DNA from: an uncultured Candidatus Saccharibacteria bacterium
GTDB taxonomy: Bacteria; Patescibacteriota; Minisyncoccia; CAYVXU01
Length of the DNA stretch: 32,277 nucleotides
Direction: 5' to 3'
Assembly: GCA_964454705.1 (NCBI GenBank)
Contig: CAYVXU010000009.1
Span: forward strand, 1 to 32,277
Position numbers and translations under genes: made by a program. Every line of letters begins with the position of its first letter. The first letter of the stretch is position 1. Shown here piece by piece: positions 2,891 through 32,277 of the stretch. The notes under the pieces are model-generated. The model had not been told where the DNA came from and ran no database searches. It saw only the letters and a list, made by a program, of their open reading frames with translations.

Positions 2891-3733
2891 TTATTGAATC
2901 TCATATTTAAGGGTCACGCTCACACGGATTTCCTGTGACCCGGGCTCAACAAACGGCGGCGGCGGAACACTCTTTGTATACTCTCCCCCTCCCCTGCCGA
3001 TTCCGTAATCATAGTAGGGAAGCCCGCCAAACGACTCCTCGATAGAGAGCAGTCGCCCCACTCCGAATCCGCCCGCGTTTGCAACTGCCTCTGCTTTTTC
3101 CTTTGCCTTCGCAATTGCCTCCTTCCGGGCTTCATTCTGCAGTCCGCTCGAGTCATCAACGGTAAAGGTAAGCTGCGAAACCGAGTTTGCTCCTTCTTTT
3201 ACCGCTCCGGTGAGCAGTTCTCCTACTTTTACCTTCTCAAAATTCTTCACCTTTACCTGCACGGTTTGCGAGACGGTGTAGCCGACAATATCAGGCGGGG
3301 GGCACCCGCCGCGTCCGGGAGGTGTATCGATGATTGATAGATCAGCCGTGGGTTCGCGTTGCGGATATACGATCGGCGGTGAGGTGCACGGATAGTGCTG
3401 ATATCGCGGCTCCACATTATATGCCTGGGTTTGCAGATCTTCCGCCGGTACCCCACGGTCTTTGACGAATTTGTTTATCCTATTTACCTTTTCGGTATTT
3501 TCGCCAAGAAGCTTGTTGATGTCCTTCCCTCCTTCGGTAATCACGCTAAATGAAAACCGTGCCACATCGGGCACCCAGACCTTTTTTCCCTCTCCCGTGA
3601 CAATGAAACTGCGGAACGATGAGGGTTGAATGGATTTTGAATACGACCGTACGAATGAGTGCACGGAAAGCGCGACTGCAAGGATCCCCACCACGAGCGC
3701 TCCTCCAAGCACATTTTTGAGAGTAGTGTGCAT
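2891..3733 (-). CDS. SIMPL (DUF541) domain secreted/periplasmic protein
   Basis: N-terminal signal anchor followed by the SIMPL layout (FIVTGEGKKVWVPDVARFSFSV ... EIRVSVTLKYEI). ATG 3733 is preferred over the GTG track start 3739. Confidence 0.8.
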   Translation of the reverse strand: MHTTLKNVLGGALVVGILAVALSVHSFVRSYSKSIQPSSFRSFIVTGEGKKVWVPDVARFSFSVITEGGKDINKLLGENTEKVNRINKFVKDRGVPAEDLQTQAYNVEPRYQHYPCTSPPIVYPQREPTADLSIIDTPPGRGGCPPPDIVGYTVSQTVQVKVKNFEKVKVGELLTGAVKEGANSVSQLTFTVDDSSGLQNEARKEAIAKAKEKAEAVANAGGFGVGRLLSIEESFGGLPYYDYGIGRGGGEYTKSVPPPPFVEPGSQEIRVSVTLKYEIQ

Positions 3734-3799: not shown

Positions 3800-3822
3800 C
3801 AAGCTCACCTTCTACCTTCGGT

Positions 3823-3952
3823 AATTTCAAATTTCAAAATCCAAATGTCAAATAAATGTGGAAAACCTCAATGTCCAATGACAAAAATCGAAGCTGCCTC
3901 TTTGGATTTTGGAAATTGGGGTTTTATTTGAAATTTGGATTTTGTCATTTGG
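3823..3952. repeat. AT-rich imperfect palindrome, subfamily 2, long copy
   Basis: About 130 bp folding around 3890-3904. Its ends match the reverse complement of the element at 31290-31378 (36/37 and 26/27 nt). Confidence 0.85.
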
Positions 3953-4025
3953 TTTTTTGAGTGTATGTAATATAGAACTGCCACGTACGTCTCCTACCAT
4001 AGCCAGGATGTATCACCTGTCACCC

Positions 4026-4744: not shown

Positions 4745-5083
4745 TCAGCAGGCCAAAGATATTCTTCCCGCGCGAAAAAACTCTCTCGATTGCATATCCT
4801 TCGCGAATGAATGCGCTTTTTCTTTCATATTTTCTGCCATATGTCTTACCGAATCTGCAGGGTTCACTTCGCCGGGTGTGGTCATAAAGGGCTCCTCCGG
4901 AATGACGACAAGCGAGAGAAGGTACACAATAACCATAAACCCACTCGTCACAAAGAGGAGAATGAGGAATATAAACCGCACGAGCGCGGGATCTACATCA
5001 AAGTATTCTCCGAGACCCCCGGCGACCCCGCCGAGAATCCGGTTGGTACGCGAACGAAATAAGCGTTTTTGCATGTTGGACAT
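4745..5083 (-). CDS. PspC-domain membrane protein, apparently truncated by a -1 frame break (corrected model 4623..5083)
   Basis: RILGGVAGGLGEYFDVDPALVRFIFLIL matches the PspC domain consensus. The ORF stops at 4745, but the -1 frame continues from the A6 run (4775-4780) with two further TM helices to TAG 4623-4625. Confidence 0.8.
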   Translation of the reverse strand: MSNMQKRLFRSRTNRILGGVAGGLGEYFDVDPALVRFIFLILLFVTSGFMVIVYLLSLVVIPEEPFMTTPGEVNPADSVRHMAENMKEKAHSFAKDMQSREFFRAGRISLAC

Positions 5084-5089
5084 TATATT

Positions 5090-5208
5090 AATTCAAAATT
5101 CAAAAATCAAATGTCAAAATGAAAGATTAAAAATTGAAAAAGCAACGCTGCAGTATTTTTTTGGTTCTTTTTACATTTTACATTTTCATTTTGATTTTTG
5201 CATTTGAG
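5090..5208. repeat. AT-rich imperfect palindrome, subfamily 1, copy 2
   Basis: The ends (AATTCAAAATTCAAAAATCAAATGTCAAAAT ... TTTTGATTTTTGCATTTGAG) match the copy at 2493-2604. It fills the whole gap between the stop at 5209-5211 and ATG 5083. Confidence 0.8.
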
Positions 5209-11186: not shown

Positions 11187-11187
11187 T

Positions 11188-11253
11188 CCCGTTAGAGAAA
11201 AGCCGCCCCTAGCGGCTGCCGCCGTGCCTTCGGCGGGGCGGTTCTCTAACGGG
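11188..11253 (+). repeat. 66-nt GC-rich multi-hairpin palindromic element, copy 1
   Basis: Outer 12-bp stem CCCGTTAGAGAA / TTCTCTAACGGG encloses two hairpins (AGCCGC..GCGGCT and CCGCCG-TGCCTT-CGGCGG). It is 63/66 identical to the reverse complement of 22238-22303 and sits exactly between two divergent -35 boxes. Confidence 0.85.
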
Positions 11254-11258
11254 AAAAA

Positions 11259-11287
11259 TTGACTTCGCGAACATGCGTTGGTAGGAT
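11259..11287 (+). promoter_or_regulatory. Candidate promoter of the GT2 operon
   Basis: TTGACT (11259-11264), 17-nt spacer, TAGGAT (11282-11287). Confidence 0.45.
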
Positions 11288-19221: not shown

Positions 19222-19304
19222 GAAATTTTCAATTTACAATTTCTAATTTTCAATTGAAAATTTGGATATTGAGAATTCATTGAAAATTGCAAATTGAGAA
19301 TTGG
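19222..19304. repeat. AT-rich nested palindrome (CAATT-word type)
   Basis: Perfect 14-bp palindrome TTTTCAATTGAAAA (19247-19260). AATTTTCAAT occurs at 19225 and 19245 and inverted at 19280. The direct repeat ATTGAGAATT occurs at 19268 and 19293. Confidence 0.75.
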
Positions 19305-22207: not shown

Positions 22208-22236
22208 ATACTACACAATTTTGTGGGTGGGTTCAA
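22208..22236 (-). promoter_or_regulatory. Sigma70-like promoter with leaderless geometry for the glutaredoxin gene
   Basis: Minus strand TTGAAC (22231-22236), 17-nt spacer, TAGTAT (22208-22213), then 8 nt to ATG 22199. No SD. Confidence 0.6.
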
Positions 22237-22237
22237 C

Positions 22238-22303
22238 CCCGTTAGAGAACCGCCCTGCCGAAGGCACGGCGGCAGCCGCTAGGAGCGGCTTTTCTCTCAC
22301 GGG
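22238..22303 (-). repeat. 66-nt GC-rich multi-hairpin palindromic element, copy 2 (inverted)
   Basis: Its reverse complement is 63/66 identical to 11188-11253. It contains the TGA stop (22297-22299) of the kinase gene and ends 1 nt from the -35 of the glutaredoxin promoter. Confidence 0.85.
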
Positions 22304-24105
22304 GCGAGCGGCAATGTAAATCGCATCACAGTTCCCTTACCCTCCTTTGACTCTGCGGTGATTGACCCGCCCATACGTTCAATAAGCTGCCTCACAATAA
22401 AGAGGCCTAGGCCCGTGCCGGATATTTTTCGCTCAATTGCGCCGGGCGCGCGATAAAACTTCTCGAATAATTTTTTCATCTCTTCTGGTTTTATGCCGAT
22501 ACCGGTATCTTCTATCTCGGTTATGAGACTTCTTCTTTGCGTGCGATGCCGGATCGACACCCTCCCTCCTTCTTTGTTGTACTTAATTGCATTGCCGATT
22601 AAATTCACCAGCACCTCCCGGAGACGGTCCTGGTCGGCAAGGATGCGCGGCACACCTTCTACTTTTTCGTACTGAATATGTACCTTCGATTTATCCGCAA
22701 GCGGGGCGAGCGACTGTATCACCTCCTCTACCGCTCGCGTTATCTGCAGTGGCGCAACCTTAAATTCAAGCCTGCCCGCCTGCGACCGGGCAATATTGAG
22801 AAGATCATCTACAAGCGATACCAGCTGTTCATTCGACTGCTGTACTCTCTGAAGAAAATGCCGCTGTTGTGCGGTGAGCGACCCCCCTTCGAGTAAGAGG
22901 GAAATAAAACCCTTTATTGCGGTAACCGGCGTCCGAAGTTCGTGCGCGGCAACGAATGCAAATTCATCTTTGAGTTCAATGAGTTCTTGTACGCTTCGCG
23001 CCATCGAATTAAATGCAATGCCAAGCGCTTCGAGTTCGTCGCCGCTTTGGATATTGATAGGATGGTCAAACTTTCCCTCCGCTACGTGCGCAGTTTCAAA
23101 CTCCAGCTGCTGGATGGGGCGTACCACATGCCTCCCCAGGCGTATGGCAAGCAAAAGAGAAAGCGCGAGCACCGCAATTCCAATCACGGCGAATTGGCCT
23201 GAAAGGGTGCGGACAATGGCCTCTGCTTCTTCCACTGGCCATTCCACTACCAGCGCGGCGTTGAGAAGCGGCGAGCACTCGGTACTGCCGATTACGATAC
23301 CGCGGTCTTCACTTTCATAGCGGCCCTGGTACGGGCGGCATGCAAACGCTTCTCCTTCTGCGCGATATCCCGAAAAAGGAAACCCCGCAGGGCGGCCCAC
23401 GCGTGAGGGATCGAGCGAATGGGCAACGATGGTCCCGCGCTGATCCACGGCATACATATATCCCGTCTCCTGAAGCTGGGGTCCTTTTTCGATGATAGAA
23501 AGAATTTCTTTAAGAGAGATATACCCGACAAATGCCCCGATATATTGTTCTTCGGCGTTCGTGACCGGAGCGGCAACTTCGAGCGCGGGGCCGTCAAGGG
23601 TAAAAATGGTATTGCCGTGCGCGCGCGCGCCCGCAAGCGCCTTTGCCACCAGCGGATCCTCGCGCCAGTCGAAGAAGATACGCGGCTCTGCAGCGGGGTC
23701 AAAGCGGTCAATACGCGCGGTCTCGCGCCCAAGATGGTTTACGTAACGCAGGGAAATAAATGCCTTGTTTTTGAGGATTGCCTGGATGAGCTCCTGCACC
23801 TCGCGCCGTTCAATATCCTGCCTTCCTTTAATAGGCACCTGGACCTCAAGGGCACCCACCACCTCTTCGAGATGCCGCGCAATTTCGGCGCTGCGGAGCC
23901 GTATGAGCTGCTGCTCAAGCACGTCAACATTTCTGCGGTTCGTCCGGTTAATGATAGTAATGCCGCTTACCCCTACTATCACGAACGGCAAAACTACCGC
24001 AAAGAAAAACGTGCGGATGAAGCGGTTGCGCAGTTTTCTCTTAGGCCTTGTGCCTAGCTTATTGGGCGCGGATAGGGGCGCCGGTTGTGTAGAAGTCGCG
24101 CTCAC
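22297..24105 (-). CDS. Sensor histidine kinase (periplasmic Cache-like domain, HAMP, HisKA, HATPase_c)
   Basis: Two TM segments flank a ~270-aa extracytoplasmic domain. HAMP region, H-box AAHELRTPVTAIKG, N-box NLIGNAIKYN, G-boxes DTGIGI and GTGLGL. The start is GTG. Confidence 0.9.
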   Translation of the reverse strand: MSATSTQPAPLSAPNKLGTRPKRKLRNRFIRTFFFAVVLPFVIVGVSGITIINRTNRRNVDVLEQQLIRLRSAEIARHLEEVVGALEVQVPIKGRQDIERREVQELIQAILKNKAFISLRYVNHLGRETARIDRFDPAAEPRIFFDWREDPLVAKALAGARAHGNTIFTLDGPALEVAAPVTNAEEQYIGAFVGYISLKEILSIIEKGPQLQETGYMYAVDQRGTIVAHSLDPSRVGRPAGFPFSGYRAEGEAFACRPYQGRYESEDRGIVIGSTECSPLLNAALVVEWPVEEAEAIVRTLSGQFAVIGIAVLALSLLLAIRLGRHVVRPIQQLEFETAHVAEGKFDHPINIQSGDELEALGIAFNSMARSVQELIELKDEFAFVAAHELRTPVTAIKGFISLLLEGGSLTAQQRHFLQRVQQSNEQLVSLVDDLLNIARSQAGRLEFKVAPLQITRAVEEVIQSLAPLADKSKVHIQYEKVEGVPRILADQDRLREVLVNLIGNAIKYNKEGGRVSIRHRTQRRSLITEIEDTGIGIKPEEMKKLFEKFYRAPGAIERKISGTGLGLFIVRQLIERMGGSITAESKEGKGTVMRFTLPLAP

Positions 24106-31272: not shown

Positions 31273-31290
31273 TACGATAGTGCTATCGTA
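31273..31290. promoter_or_regulatory. 18-bp palindrome 3 nt upstream of the rplS ATG
   Basis: TACGATAG-TG-CTATCGTA (8+8 perfect arms). No SD lies between it and the ATG. Confidence 0.4.
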
Positions 31291-31378
31291 AATCCAAATG
31301 ACCAAATCCAAATTTCAAATTATCGGACATTGAGATTTTGACATTTATTTAACATTTGGATTTTGAAATTTGAAATTC
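31290..31378. repeat. AT-rich imperfect palindrome, subfamily 2, short copy
   Basis: Its reverse complement aligns with 3823-3952 apart from a ~45-nt central deletion. It lies between the RluA-family stop (31386) and the rplS start. Confidence 0.85.
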
Positions 31379-31385
31379 TTGAAAG

Positions 31386-32135
31386 TTAGGCAATGGTAGC
31401 AGGATTTGCCTGATTTCGCAAGTATGCAAGCGCCTTTTGGAAATCATCCGGAAGCGGCGCCTCAAACTCATAGAGCATCCCGGACGGATACTCAAAGGAG
31501 AGTGAGGCTGCATGCAGCATCTGCCGTGTTACTCCCGGAAGATGCGCTTGGCGTTTAAACTTGTACTTCTCATCGCCCACTACCGGGTGACCGATGGATG
31601 CGAGATGCACCCGTATCTGATGCGTGCGCCCGCTTTTAGGAAATACCTCAAGGAGAGTATACTCCGCCTCGCCATCAGACGAGGCTAACGCAAACCGCTC
31701 TTTTACTTTATATTCCGTAACCGCGGTTTTGCGTTTGACCTCTGTATCGGACCGCAGTACTTTCGTTTTTCCCTCTTCCTTTATAAGCGCCGTATCAATA
31801 ACTCCTTTTTCCTGCCGCACCGCACCATACACAAGCGCAAGGTACTTTTTGTGTACCGTCCGCCCCTGAAATGCCGATTTCAGATAGGTAAATGCCTTAC
31901 GCGTCTTCGCAATTACCATTACTCCCGAAGTATCTTTATCAAGCCGGTGTACAATCCCCGGCCGCGTCGTGTCTTCACCTACTTCTTTTATGTGAGGATA
32001 GTTCTCAAGAAGCCAGTCCACAAGCGTTGGCTCATGCGAAGAGGGAGTTGGATGCACCAACAACCCGGATGGCTTGTCTATGATCAGAAAGTTATTACGT
32101 TCATACAGTATTCGAGGATTTTGAGGTGTATGCAT
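31386..32135 (-). CDS. RluA-family pseudouridine synthase
   Basis: HRLDKDTSGVMVIAK catalytic motif and HQIRVHLA. The first ATG is 32135; the track start 32177 is a TTG inside the repeat. Confidence 0.9.
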   Translation of the reverse strand: MHTPQNPRILYERNNFLIIDKPSGLLVHPTPSSHEPTLVDWLLENYPHIKEVGEDTTRPGIVHRLDKDTSGVMVIAKTRKAFTYLKSAFQGRTVHKKYLALVYGAVRQEKGVIDTALIKEEGKTKVLRSDTEVKRKTAVTEYKVKERFALASSDGEAEYTLLEVFPKSGRTHQIRVHLASIGHPVVGDEKYKFKRQAHLPGVTRQMLHAASLSFEYPSGMLYEFEAPLPDDFQKALAYLRNQANPATIA

Positions 32136-32141
32136 GAATCT

Positions 32142-32277
32142 AGAAATTCCAAATCCCAAGCACCAAATTCCAAACAATAATAAAATCCAAATTACCTAAA
32201 TCTCAAACATTTAGACATTTTGGTCATTGGAGATTGAGATTTGCTTGGTATTTGGGATTTGGATTTTGGAATTTCCA
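32142..32277. repeat. AT-rich imperfect palindrome related to subfamily 2 (reaches the window edge)
   Basis: GAAATTCC (32143-32150) pairs with GGAATTTC (32268-32275), and AAATCTCAA pairs with TTGAGATTT near the centre. It shares words with 31290-31378 and starts 7 nt from ATG 32135. Confidence 0.7.

Follow-up and report, generated by a model that had tools for sequence, protein, structure and literature searches.

The window analysed here, a 32,277-nt stretch of a contig from an uncultured Candidatus Saccharibacteria bacterium, contains two copies of a 66-nt GC-rich repeat, arranged as an inverted pair at positions 11188-11253 (copy 1, plus strand) and 22238-22303 (copy 2, minus strand). Both repeats are probably non-autonomous copies, similar to MITEs (miniature inverted-repeat transposable elements), of a family of very small GIY-YIG DNA transposons. 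Short relatives in other genomes behave as transposons with respect to terminal repeats, target duplication, insertion, and frame preservation. Coding elements of 275-305 bp have the same ends and thus mark the window copies as MITE-like derivatives.

The two window copies resemble each other over precisely the length of the element. A repeat search of the window returned a 66-nt inverted pair with 95% complementarity and 10984 nt between its arms, and pairwise alignment including the flanks gave 63/66 identical positions, with the likeness ending abruptly on both sides. On each strand, either copy folds into an outer stem around two GC hairpins with −45.8 to −49.6 kcal/mol, corresponding to z = −5.2 to −6.0 against dinucleotide shuffles, of which 0/200 were equally stable. 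The outer stem comprises 12-13 bp, the predicted fold gaining a 13th terminal pair beyond the 66 nt (copy 1, T11187-A11254; copy 2, C22237-G22304), so that copy 1 extends over 11187-11254. In copy 1, the left arm CCCGTTAGAGAA (11188-11199) pairs with the right arm TTCTCTAACGGG (11242-11253), as located by the fold and a 12-mer search, and the arms enclose inner hairpin 1 (AGCCGC/GCGGCT, 11201-11217, plus strand) and inner hairpin 2 (11218-11242, plus strand). In copy 2, the arm on the plus-strand side that adjoins the glutaredoxin gene again reads CCCGTTAGAGAA (22238-22249, by sequence reading and 12-mer search), and alignment of the copies places a T-to-G change in the opposite arm (22292-22303, CCCGTGAGAGAA on the minus strand). 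Allowing one mismatch, the 12-mer CCCGTNAGAGAA occurs five times in the window compared to 0.43 expected occurrences, and four of the five are the arms of both copies. The repeats are short and non-coding, as no open reading frame (ORF) in the ORF list is contained in either 66-nt copy.

No third copy was detected in the window: a covariance model of subclass A, the group of relatives described below, returned only copy 1 (71 bits, E 7e-20) and copy 2 (69.5 bits) with filters off. At gathering score, Rfam 15 recognizes two tRNAs in the window and nothing else, and around copy 1 nothing relevant appears at E up to 10. The first-pass annotation, made from the letters of this DNA, had described inverted copies with 63/66 identity, each consisting of an outer stem and two GC hairpins, and alignment and folding bear this out. 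The covariance-model and Rfam searches it had proposed leave two copies in the window and no known RNA family. It was also correct that the three differences between copies 1 and 2 are not compensatory, although the inner hairpins covary across the family.

The arm sequence defines a family distributed over many phyla. Scanning one genome per GTDB species for CCCGTNAGAGAA-N(30-60)-TTCTCTNACGGG yielded at least 119 stretches, whereas about one is expected by chance according to our own arithmetic; counts of short elements refer throughout to the matches listed. All records are metagenome-assembled genomes (MAGs), mostly of Patescibacteria. Further hosts belong to Omnitrophota, Elusimicrobia, Planctomycetota/Pirellulales, Nitrospirota, Nitrospinota, Myxococcota, and Aminicenantes, and short elements also occur in bins labelled Bdellovibrionales, Gammaproteobacteria, and, in one case, archaeal. 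The listed short elements (n=122) are 55-83 nt long and mostly solitary, their 12-mer arms occurring almost exclusively as convergent pairs 55-83 nt apart. Including the outermost pair, the terminal inverted repeats measure 13 bp and read Y-CCCGTTAGAG...CTCTAACGGG-R. The 12-nt arm that bounds copy 1 is identical in these elements across phyla, which sits uneasily with the rest of the picture, and copies inside one MAG are nearly identical (L048, L056, L101). Among 2.9 million viral contigs, the short pattern had no match and the long pattern of the coding elements (see below) had one, so that carriage by phages is unsupported.

The interior of the elements divides the family. Subclass A, to which the window copies belong, comprises 32 listed examples plus a few in reverse and has an interior that starts after the first arm with A and hairpin AGYCGCC/GGYGRCT and continues with GAA and another hairpin, whose sequence is free, up to the second arm. 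Subclass B is about 58 nt long and has a third, internal repeat of the arm, while many unrelated interiors make up the remaining short elements. Within subclass A, the helix of hairpin 1 covaries (pair 16-34 is UA in 18, CG in 10, and UG in 4 cases; pair 20-30 is CG in 15 and UA in 14), and hairpin 2 has a different yet still complementary stem in nearly every genome. Column 20 covaries with two mutually exclusive partners, which suggests either alternative folds or merely two clades.

Target duplications indicate that the short elements behave as transposons. A perfect 4-bp duplication flanks 78 of 121 unique listed short elements, compared to 11.6 ± 3.1 (maximum 22) in 2000 permutations that preserve target composition. 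The duplicated target has the consensus TNNA, often as G-TNNA-C, and directly inside it the 13th pair is complementary in 114/121 elements (C-G 96, T-A 14, G-C 2, A-T 2). Two other parses, a 6-bp duplication GTNNAC and a 2-bp duplication with 14-bp ends, were superseded by that of 4 bp plus 13th pair, because ATGAAC/GTGAAA and the polynucleotide phosphorylase (PNPase) site G-CTTG-A/T-CTTG-A fit that parse only (here and below, a slash within flanking sequence marks an element junction). Moreover, short elements preserve the frame of the genes they enter. Of 18 elements whose surrounding ORF stays open for at least 150 nt on both sides, 17 have a length divisible by 3, compared to 42 of the 103 others (p = 1.5e-5). 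Depending on the frame, these read-through elements are translated as PVRE...FSNG or PLE...SLTG; their conservation is therefore at the level of DNA.

A filled and an empty site confirm insertion directly. The PNPase gene of a Wolfebacteria MAG (L070) harbors a subclass A element; alignment of its product with solved PNPase structures is interrupted at precisely this place, and comparison with seven Patescibacteria homologues reveals a single clean insertion of 24 residues, LDPLEKSRPEAAEAVPAAGRSLTG. The closest homologue (L242, 76% protein identity) has one GCTTGAC at the empty site, while the filled site reads GCTTGA-[66 nt]-TCTTGAT. The 72 extra bases thus equal 66 + 2 + 4. No empty sites were found among the fetched loci, which contain shared or duplicated insertions only. 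For the window copies, empty orthologous sites are likewise not on record, as the glutaredoxin gene has no recorded counterpart and the closest kinase homologue is 41% identical. Two Pirellulales MAGs (L047 6031-6087, L032 6083-6139; proteins 77% identical) have a 57-nt element within the reading frame of a Memo-like gene, with arms unchanged and the interior diverged (PVRENSSENSRDKVKFSNG vs PVRENSQENVRDKDKFSNG). We rejected it as a second filled/empty case, since the sole insertion-free homologue is too distant (33% identity) for a clean gap. In L026, two identical 82-nt elements 1658 bp apart (1730-1811 and 3388-3469) also share identical flanks and represent a tandem segmental duplication rather than two insertions.

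The short elements have a coding partner. Clustering of the ORFs at the 119 loci revealed a small cluster of GIY-YIG proteins (PF01541) of ~90-100 aa, and the recurrent neighbours of these loci encode type IV pilus components, housekeeping functions, and small GIY-YIG proteins. No DDE, Y1, serine, or tyrosine recombinase family recurs among the annotated neighbours of the 119 listed loci. In L071, two GIY-YIG ORFs lie within the same arms and a duplicated hexamer (ATGAAT/CCCGTTAGACC...GGTCTAACGGG/ATGAAA). A scan of metagenomes with the longer pattern CCCGTTAGA-N(257-287)-TCTAACGGG found at least 120 loci; as before, counts of coding elements are those of the matches listed. A profile built from four sequences detects a GIY-YIG ORF in 92 of 122 listed elements (75%) of 275-305 bp (mode 275-279) with E 1e-14 to 1e-41. 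Representatives score above the gathering threshold for PF01541, which is also the only Pfam family returned. The predicted product is a single-domain GIY-YIG nuclease of ~90 aa whose ORF spans the element from arm to arm, and the positions of the GIY, YTG, Arg, and Glu motifs are conserved across the ORFs of 88 unique coding elements.

ORF, arms, and target duplication are interlocked. Many coding copies start on the ATG of the left duplication copy, so that the arm is translated as MNPVR, and end with ...RFLSLTG from the right arm, using the TGA or TAA of the duplicated TGAA or TAAA as stop codon. On the right side, the base of the 13th pair together with the TG of the duplication rebuilds the host start codon, the junction reading ATG or GTG in 53/88 elements. 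The flank pairs ATGAAT/ATGAAA (9 elements), ATGAAT/ATGAAG (5), and ATGAAC/GTGAAA (4) are those predicted for the target A-TGAA-A if 4 bp are duplicated and the terminal pair is T-A or C-G, and the 13th pair is complementary in 86 of the 88 unique coding elements. Short elements, including subclass A-like ones, and coding elements share contigs in 23/120 listed loci (e.g., L126, L154, and L189, the last with four short elements and one coding element). Furthermore, terminal repeats of a quite different kind enclose related GIY-YIG ORFs in L010, L073, and L110, with the same type of duplication in L010 (GGTCAA/C...G/TCAAG). The association of different nuclease lineages with different terminal repeats suggests that nuclease and repeat form matched pairs.

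Some coding elements show further peculiarities. Two in L071 (4151-4446 and 7248-7543) and many in L121-L240 have an ATGA-type overlap with the host gene, some with GGAGG just before the right arm, an arrangement that suggests possible translational coupling. The same coding element occupies orthologous sites in L130/L147 and in L171/L232, with flanks only 72-79% identical; some insertions are therefore old and have been inherited vertically, in keeping with tolerance or domestication. In L019 (138-506), a GIY-YIG ORF has the 5′ part of a tRNA-like sequence on either side, which suggests insertion into, or duplication of, a tRNA gene.

The closest published system indicates how such elements might move. 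The Ssn proteins are single-domain GIY-YIG proteins of ~94 aa (CDD cd10448) that in vitro bind a hairpin repeat (NTS/dRS3 in Neisseria; 'SRM' generally) and cut only single-stranded DNA just upstream of it; hairpin repeats flank their genes, and a genome contains hundreds of copies of these repeats (Chenal et al. 2025, Nat Commun, PMC11893778). The authors liken NTS-ssnA-NTS to an insertion sequence and suggest domestication; target duplications or transposition are not reported for Ssn, and the text does not mention Patescibacteria (PMC11893778). By analogy, the nuclease of the present family would recognize the folded single-stranded ends and cut at the base of the stem, mobilizing its own gene and, in trans, the short derivatives. 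In subclass A, a single strand of the complete element folds as a three-way junction. The covarying terminal pair and inner hairpins are expected under selection on intrastrand pairing and would be unnecessary for protein recognition of duplex ends. As the window lacks a nuclease gene, its two copies are either fossils or dependent on a copy at another place in the genome.

At the level of the family, both systems have a single-domain GIY-YIG protein of ~90-95 aa, a gene bracketed by inverted-repeat DNA, a repeat scattered genome-wide, and matched nuclease-repeat pairs with differing specificities. They differ in that the ends here pair across the whole element as 13-bp repeats, whereas each Ssn flank forms its own hairpin of 20-50 nt. 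In addition, the present family shows in-frame insertions, 4-bp duplications, and a filled/empty site, none of which is reported for Ssn, and the hosts are Patescibacteria, Omnitrophota, Elusimicrobia, and others instead of mainly Pseudomonadati. We therefore describe the nuclease as Ssn-like by architecture and do not assign it to Ssn, its best sequence matches being of the UPF0213 type. In an Elusimicrobia MAG (JAHJSU01; L051 1694-2332, L053 3144-3212, L088 7616-7678), another hairpin repeat, GTCCGCCTTAGGCGGAC, is nested in short elements and also occurs in tandem upstream of another GIY-YIG gene, a layout nearer to the published NTS-ssnA.

A stronger proposition, for which we put the chances a little short of even, is that the ~90-aa single-domain GIY-YIG nucleases are genuine transposases of an unclassified kind of prokaryotic DNA transposon that uses a single-stranded fold as intermediate, generates TNNA duplications, and has a harmless design. 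If so, the autonomous units of ~275-290 bp would be the smallest self-mobilizing DNA elements known. Their ORF would start on a host ATG, end on a duplicated TGA, and return a rebuilt ATG or GTG to the host, while the short derivatives would rebuild −35 boxes as well as the G-F-T codons of prepilins and keep the frame of the genes they enter; the window repeats would be derivatives of that transposon class in Patescibacteria.

Several observations weigh against this interpretation of the window repeats. Neither copy has the expected 4-bp duplication: the flanking tetramers are GCAA and AAAA at copy 1 (2/4 bases match) and CTCG and TTGA at copy 2 (1/4 match). An inversion between the copies was considered as the cause of the missing duplications and rejected, as the flanks fail to match in that arrangement too, even though just 3 of 66 positions distinguish the copies. 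The cognate nuclease gene is absent from the window, which holds no GIY-YIG ORF. About one third of the short elements and a larger share of the coding ones have no perfect duplication (34/88 coding elements have one, though this exceeds the expected 11 ± 2.2), and a minority are flanked by reverse-complementary tetramers (TTTA/TGAA, TTCA/TAAA, CTCG/CGAG). The SRM consensus HGTCWYN(0-2)YYVSBRHN(0-5)WNVSBRGN(0-2)RNCYNB has no match on either strand of the window. The ORFs best match UPF0213-type proteins (PDB 1ZG2, E 5e-6; B. subtilis yazA), and NCBIfam yields only group I intron endonuclease matches, all below threshold. Finally, the role of the nuclease as transposase is deduced from architecture.

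This last point leaves room for another, unseen transposase, such as a DDE enzyme making a 4-bp staggered cut, that would move the elements while the GIY-YIG gene travels as a passenger or homing endonuclease. The combination of terminal inverted repeats and a short duplication is classically the mark of DDE enzymes, the known role of GIY-YIG enzymes is that of homing endonucleases and not of transposases, and the case for the nuclease as mover is architectural here. However, the ORF fills the element, its first codons (MNPVR) and last codons (SLTG) consist of arm sequence, and the duplication supplies its stop codon (TGA or TAA). Three quarters of the listed elements of this size carry it, its lineages are paired with different terminal repeats, and none of the transposase families recurs near the listed loci. 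Together with the published precedent of hairpin-specific cutting of single-stranded DNA by an Ssn protein of the same architecture, this renders a separate transposase unlikely.

In contrast to the mobile-element interpretation, the first-pass annotation had favored a promoter-linked function, and both window copies indeed lie 1-5 nt from −35-like hexamers. Copy 1 ends as GGG-AAAAA-TTGACT, and the scan calls a promoter-like site TTGACT-17-TAGGAT for the GT2 operon (11259-11287, plus strand), 5 nt from the element and in host sequence. Copy 2 ends on the minus strand as GGG-G-TTGAAC; this hexamer (22231-22236, minus strand), 1 nt from the element and in the position of the duplicated target (G/TTGA/C type), is possibly a weak −35 box of the glutaredoxin gene. 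Here the scan calls no promoter, the site scoring 8/12 by our own reading. The distances given earlier thus hold for both copies, and a promoter is called only for copy 1. No outward-facing −35 or −10 hexamer was found inside the element at either copy.

Across the family, the adjoining hexamer is the duplicated target (TTGA/TTTA/TTCA + C) and not element sequence. When 239 element ends are read in the outward direction, a site resembling sigma-70 promoters (−35, spacer of 16-18 nt, −10, at least 9/12) starts exactly one base beyond the 13th base in 17/239 ends (~7%), compared to 0.36 per other offset. A −35-like hexamer at that offset is followed by a properly spaced −10 in 21% of cases vs 3.7% elsewhere (odds ratio 6.8, p = 7e-8), an enrichment somewhat overstated, since coding DNA, in which −10-like hexamers are scarcer than in intergenic DNA, forms part of the control; this point belongs with the reservations listed above. 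Copy 2 has the typical spacing (G-TTGAAC), while copy 1, with TTGACT 5 nt away, is atypical. The simplest reading of the fixed offset would be insertion into −35 boxes, the duplication rebuilding the box.

Other favored sites follow the same logic of target and repair. ATGAA is used at start codons, and G-F-T codons (GGN TTY AC) are used in type IV prepilin leaders, where at least six insertions lie exactly before LIELL and the ORF resumes with FTLIELL after the element. Such G-F-T insertions are present in L006, L021, L039, L049, L059, L072, and L102, and the extra residues would fall in the cleaved leader. Pilus genes are the most recurrent neighbours of short elements among the matches listed. 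The arm CCCGTTAGAGAA itself resembles the prepilin codons CCTGATTGAGCT at 8/12 positions. As the duplication restores the interrupted signal, insertions of this kind are likely tolerated. Adjacency to promoters thus probably results from the TNNA target, of which TTGA of the −35 box is one form, and from the survival of harmless insertions; target preference and survival are not separable on these data.

Most likely, therefore, closeness to promoters reflects the site of insertion and not a regulatory role. The opposite proposal, a shared cis-regulatory or insulator module that would bind protein or act through DNA structure and condition the GT2 operon and glutaredoxin promoters, could draw on the hexamers next to both copies, on the single fixed offset in 17/239 ends, and on the excess of divergent over convergent contexts in subclass A (8 vs 3). 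However, the hexamer belongs to the duplicated host target, only ~7% of ends have a promoter-like site, copy 1 departs from the typical spacing, and the element contributes no outward −35/−10 of its own. Moreover, many copies are located in ORFs, often in frame, at start codons, or between convergent genes; all contexts and orientations occur, the composition of the block between the window copies is ordinary, and the filled/empty pair documents arrival by insertion. This proposal of the first-pass annotation is thus unsupported and, in our judgement, quite unlikely. Its other suggestion, a miniature element similar to Correia or repetitive extragenic palindromic (REP) sequences, is supported by terminal repeats, duplications, the filled/empty site, and coding relatives. 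It had added that many further copies would reduce the repeat to a generic REP; such copies exist, yet they form a mobile family with a promoter link in a subset.

The very stable fold (−46 to −50 kcal/mol, z ~ −6) and the covarying hairpins might alternatively point to an element acting as RNA, conserved as a structured RNA, a terminator, or a stabilizer of transcript ends in the manner of REP hairpins, which protect the mRNA upstream of them. Copy 2 lies in sense orientation where the kinase mRNA ends, and a terminator-like hairpin with a T-rich tail is flagged in each copy. However, this flag concerns inner hairpin 1 with TTTCTCT only, neither strand has a T run behind the complete element, and in copy 2 the motif lies on the strand opposite to the local genes. 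Relative to transcription, subclass A elements are tandem sense in 6 cases, tandem antisense in 6, divergent in 8, and convergent in 3, hence without orientation bias, and Rfam provides no match even at E up to 10. Duplications, in-frame insertions, and a coding partner are all properties at the DNA level. Conservation of the element for such a role is accordingly very improbable, and an RNA-level role is unlikely as the primary function, while a secondary, exapted effect on mRNA stability may exist.

Among known repeats, several share features with the family. Like the REP/BIME (REPIN)-RAYT and IS200/IS605 systems, it consists of short hairpin palindromes scattered genome-wide and a small single-gene partner flanked by the same repeats. 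IS200/IS605 and RAYT transposases recognize folded single-stranded DNA, as the GIY-YIG nuclease would do here. In contrast to the present GIY-YIG protein with target duplications, their Y1 HUH transposase generates none, and REP sequences are particular to a species, while the 12-nt arm stays identical from phylum to phylum. With Correia elements and classical MITEs, the short elements share the lack of coding capacity, terminal repeats with a duplication, locations near or in promoters and at gene ends, and the donation or disruption of signals. They are much smaller (55-83 nt), their inner hairpins covary, and their coding relative is a GIY-YIG element of ~280 bp instead of a DDE insertion sequence. 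Rickettsia palindromic elements, compared by description only, measure 100-150 bp and are confined to Rickettsiales; Rickettsia is also listed among the genomes rich in Ssn-related motifs (PMC11893778). Integron attC sites were considered as well, being imperfect palindromes of 55-140 nt with conserved GTTAG.../...CTAAC ends and a variable centre that act as folded single-stranded DNA. They were rejected because their polarity is opposite (5′-RYYYAAC...GTTRRRY-3′ vs 5′-GTTAGAG...CTCTAAC-3′ on both strands of the element), the copies are solitary and form no arrays, and no integrase is annotated among the neighbours.

A literature search retrieved no description of bacterial GIY-YIG elements with terminal repeats and duplications, the Ssn paper being nearest, and queries with 11-mers of the element returned unrelated primer matches only. 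The evidence for transposition and the fit to start and stop codons, −35 boxes, and reading frames appear to be undescribed. The Ssn work of 2025 left open whether units of hairpin repeat, small GIY-YIG gene, and hairpin repeat are mobile; the present family provides evidence from sequence comparison on this point and adds Patescibacteria, Omnitrophota, Elusimicrobia, Planctomycetota, and Nitrospirota to the phyla in which such units occur. Should the nuclease be the transposase, it would constitute a new catalytic class among prokaryotic transposons, operating as matched sets of a very small nuclease and a DNA hairpin. It would then also explain unannotated GC-rich palindromes and odd in-frame insertions that upset gene calling in MAGs of uncultured phyla. 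For the window, the regulatory story is removed, and the contacts to promoters and to the kinase stop codon become a consequence of the landing and survival of mobile DNA.

The genes around both copies are as first described. Copy 1 lies between a divergent gene of unknown function and an operon encoding a GT2 glycosyltransferase and a polysaccharide deacetylase, while copy 2 separates two minus-strand genes, one for a Cache-HAMP histidine kinase and one for a glutaredoxin. Copy 2 has two local effects: it supplies the kinase stop codon, as had been noted in the first reading, and it adjoins the −35-like hexamer of the glutaredoxin gene. The kinase ORF (22297-24105, minus strand) ends on a TGA at 22299-22297 within copy 2, produced by the T-to-G substitution in the arm; it depends on this G where the family consensus has T (CCCGTGAGAG vs CCCGTTAGAG). 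By direct sequence reading, restoring the consensus T lets the ORF continue as PLEKSRS*, seven residues longer. The kinase is also encoded on NCBI contig SBBJ01000053.1 of GCA_005239765.1, and the best named matches of the aspartyl-tRNA synthetase of the window are from Minisyncoccia, Patescibacteria, and Sungbacteria at 70-74% identity; the window thus belongs to a genome of the Patescibacteria.

That the pair marks the inversion sites of an 11-kb segment or the ends of a composite transposon with polysaccharide, ATPase, and glutaredoxin genes might be argued from two 95% identical inverted copies 11 kb apart and from an inverted pair with inverted-repeat flanks in L101, but it is most improbable, as neither the outer nor the post-inversion flanks are duplicated, GC content and skew of the 11.2-22.3 kb block are flat and equal to those of its surroundings, the block includes a tRNA gene and housekeeping-type genes, the arrangement around copy 2 is unchanged in the one other assembly stretch read for this locus (3.8 kb from the kinase across copy 2 and glutaredoxin into the ATPase gene), and elements elsewhere are mostly solitary. 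We thus find no sign of the two copies working as a unit. The L101 pair itself consists of subclass A elements 3.2 kb apart (1769-1837 and 4982-5050) with 63-78 nt of flank that are also inverted-repeated (94-96%), possibly a larger inverted duplication or an invertible segment.

Another repeat family of the window comprises six intergenic palindromes that are rich in AT and composed of 7-8-nt units (CAAAAT / TCAAAAN), at 2493-2604, 3814-3964, 5090-5205, 19226-19304, 31290-31386, and 32143-32275. They fold into long imperfect hairpins with z of −1.2 to −3.3 and could be terminators or another miniature element.

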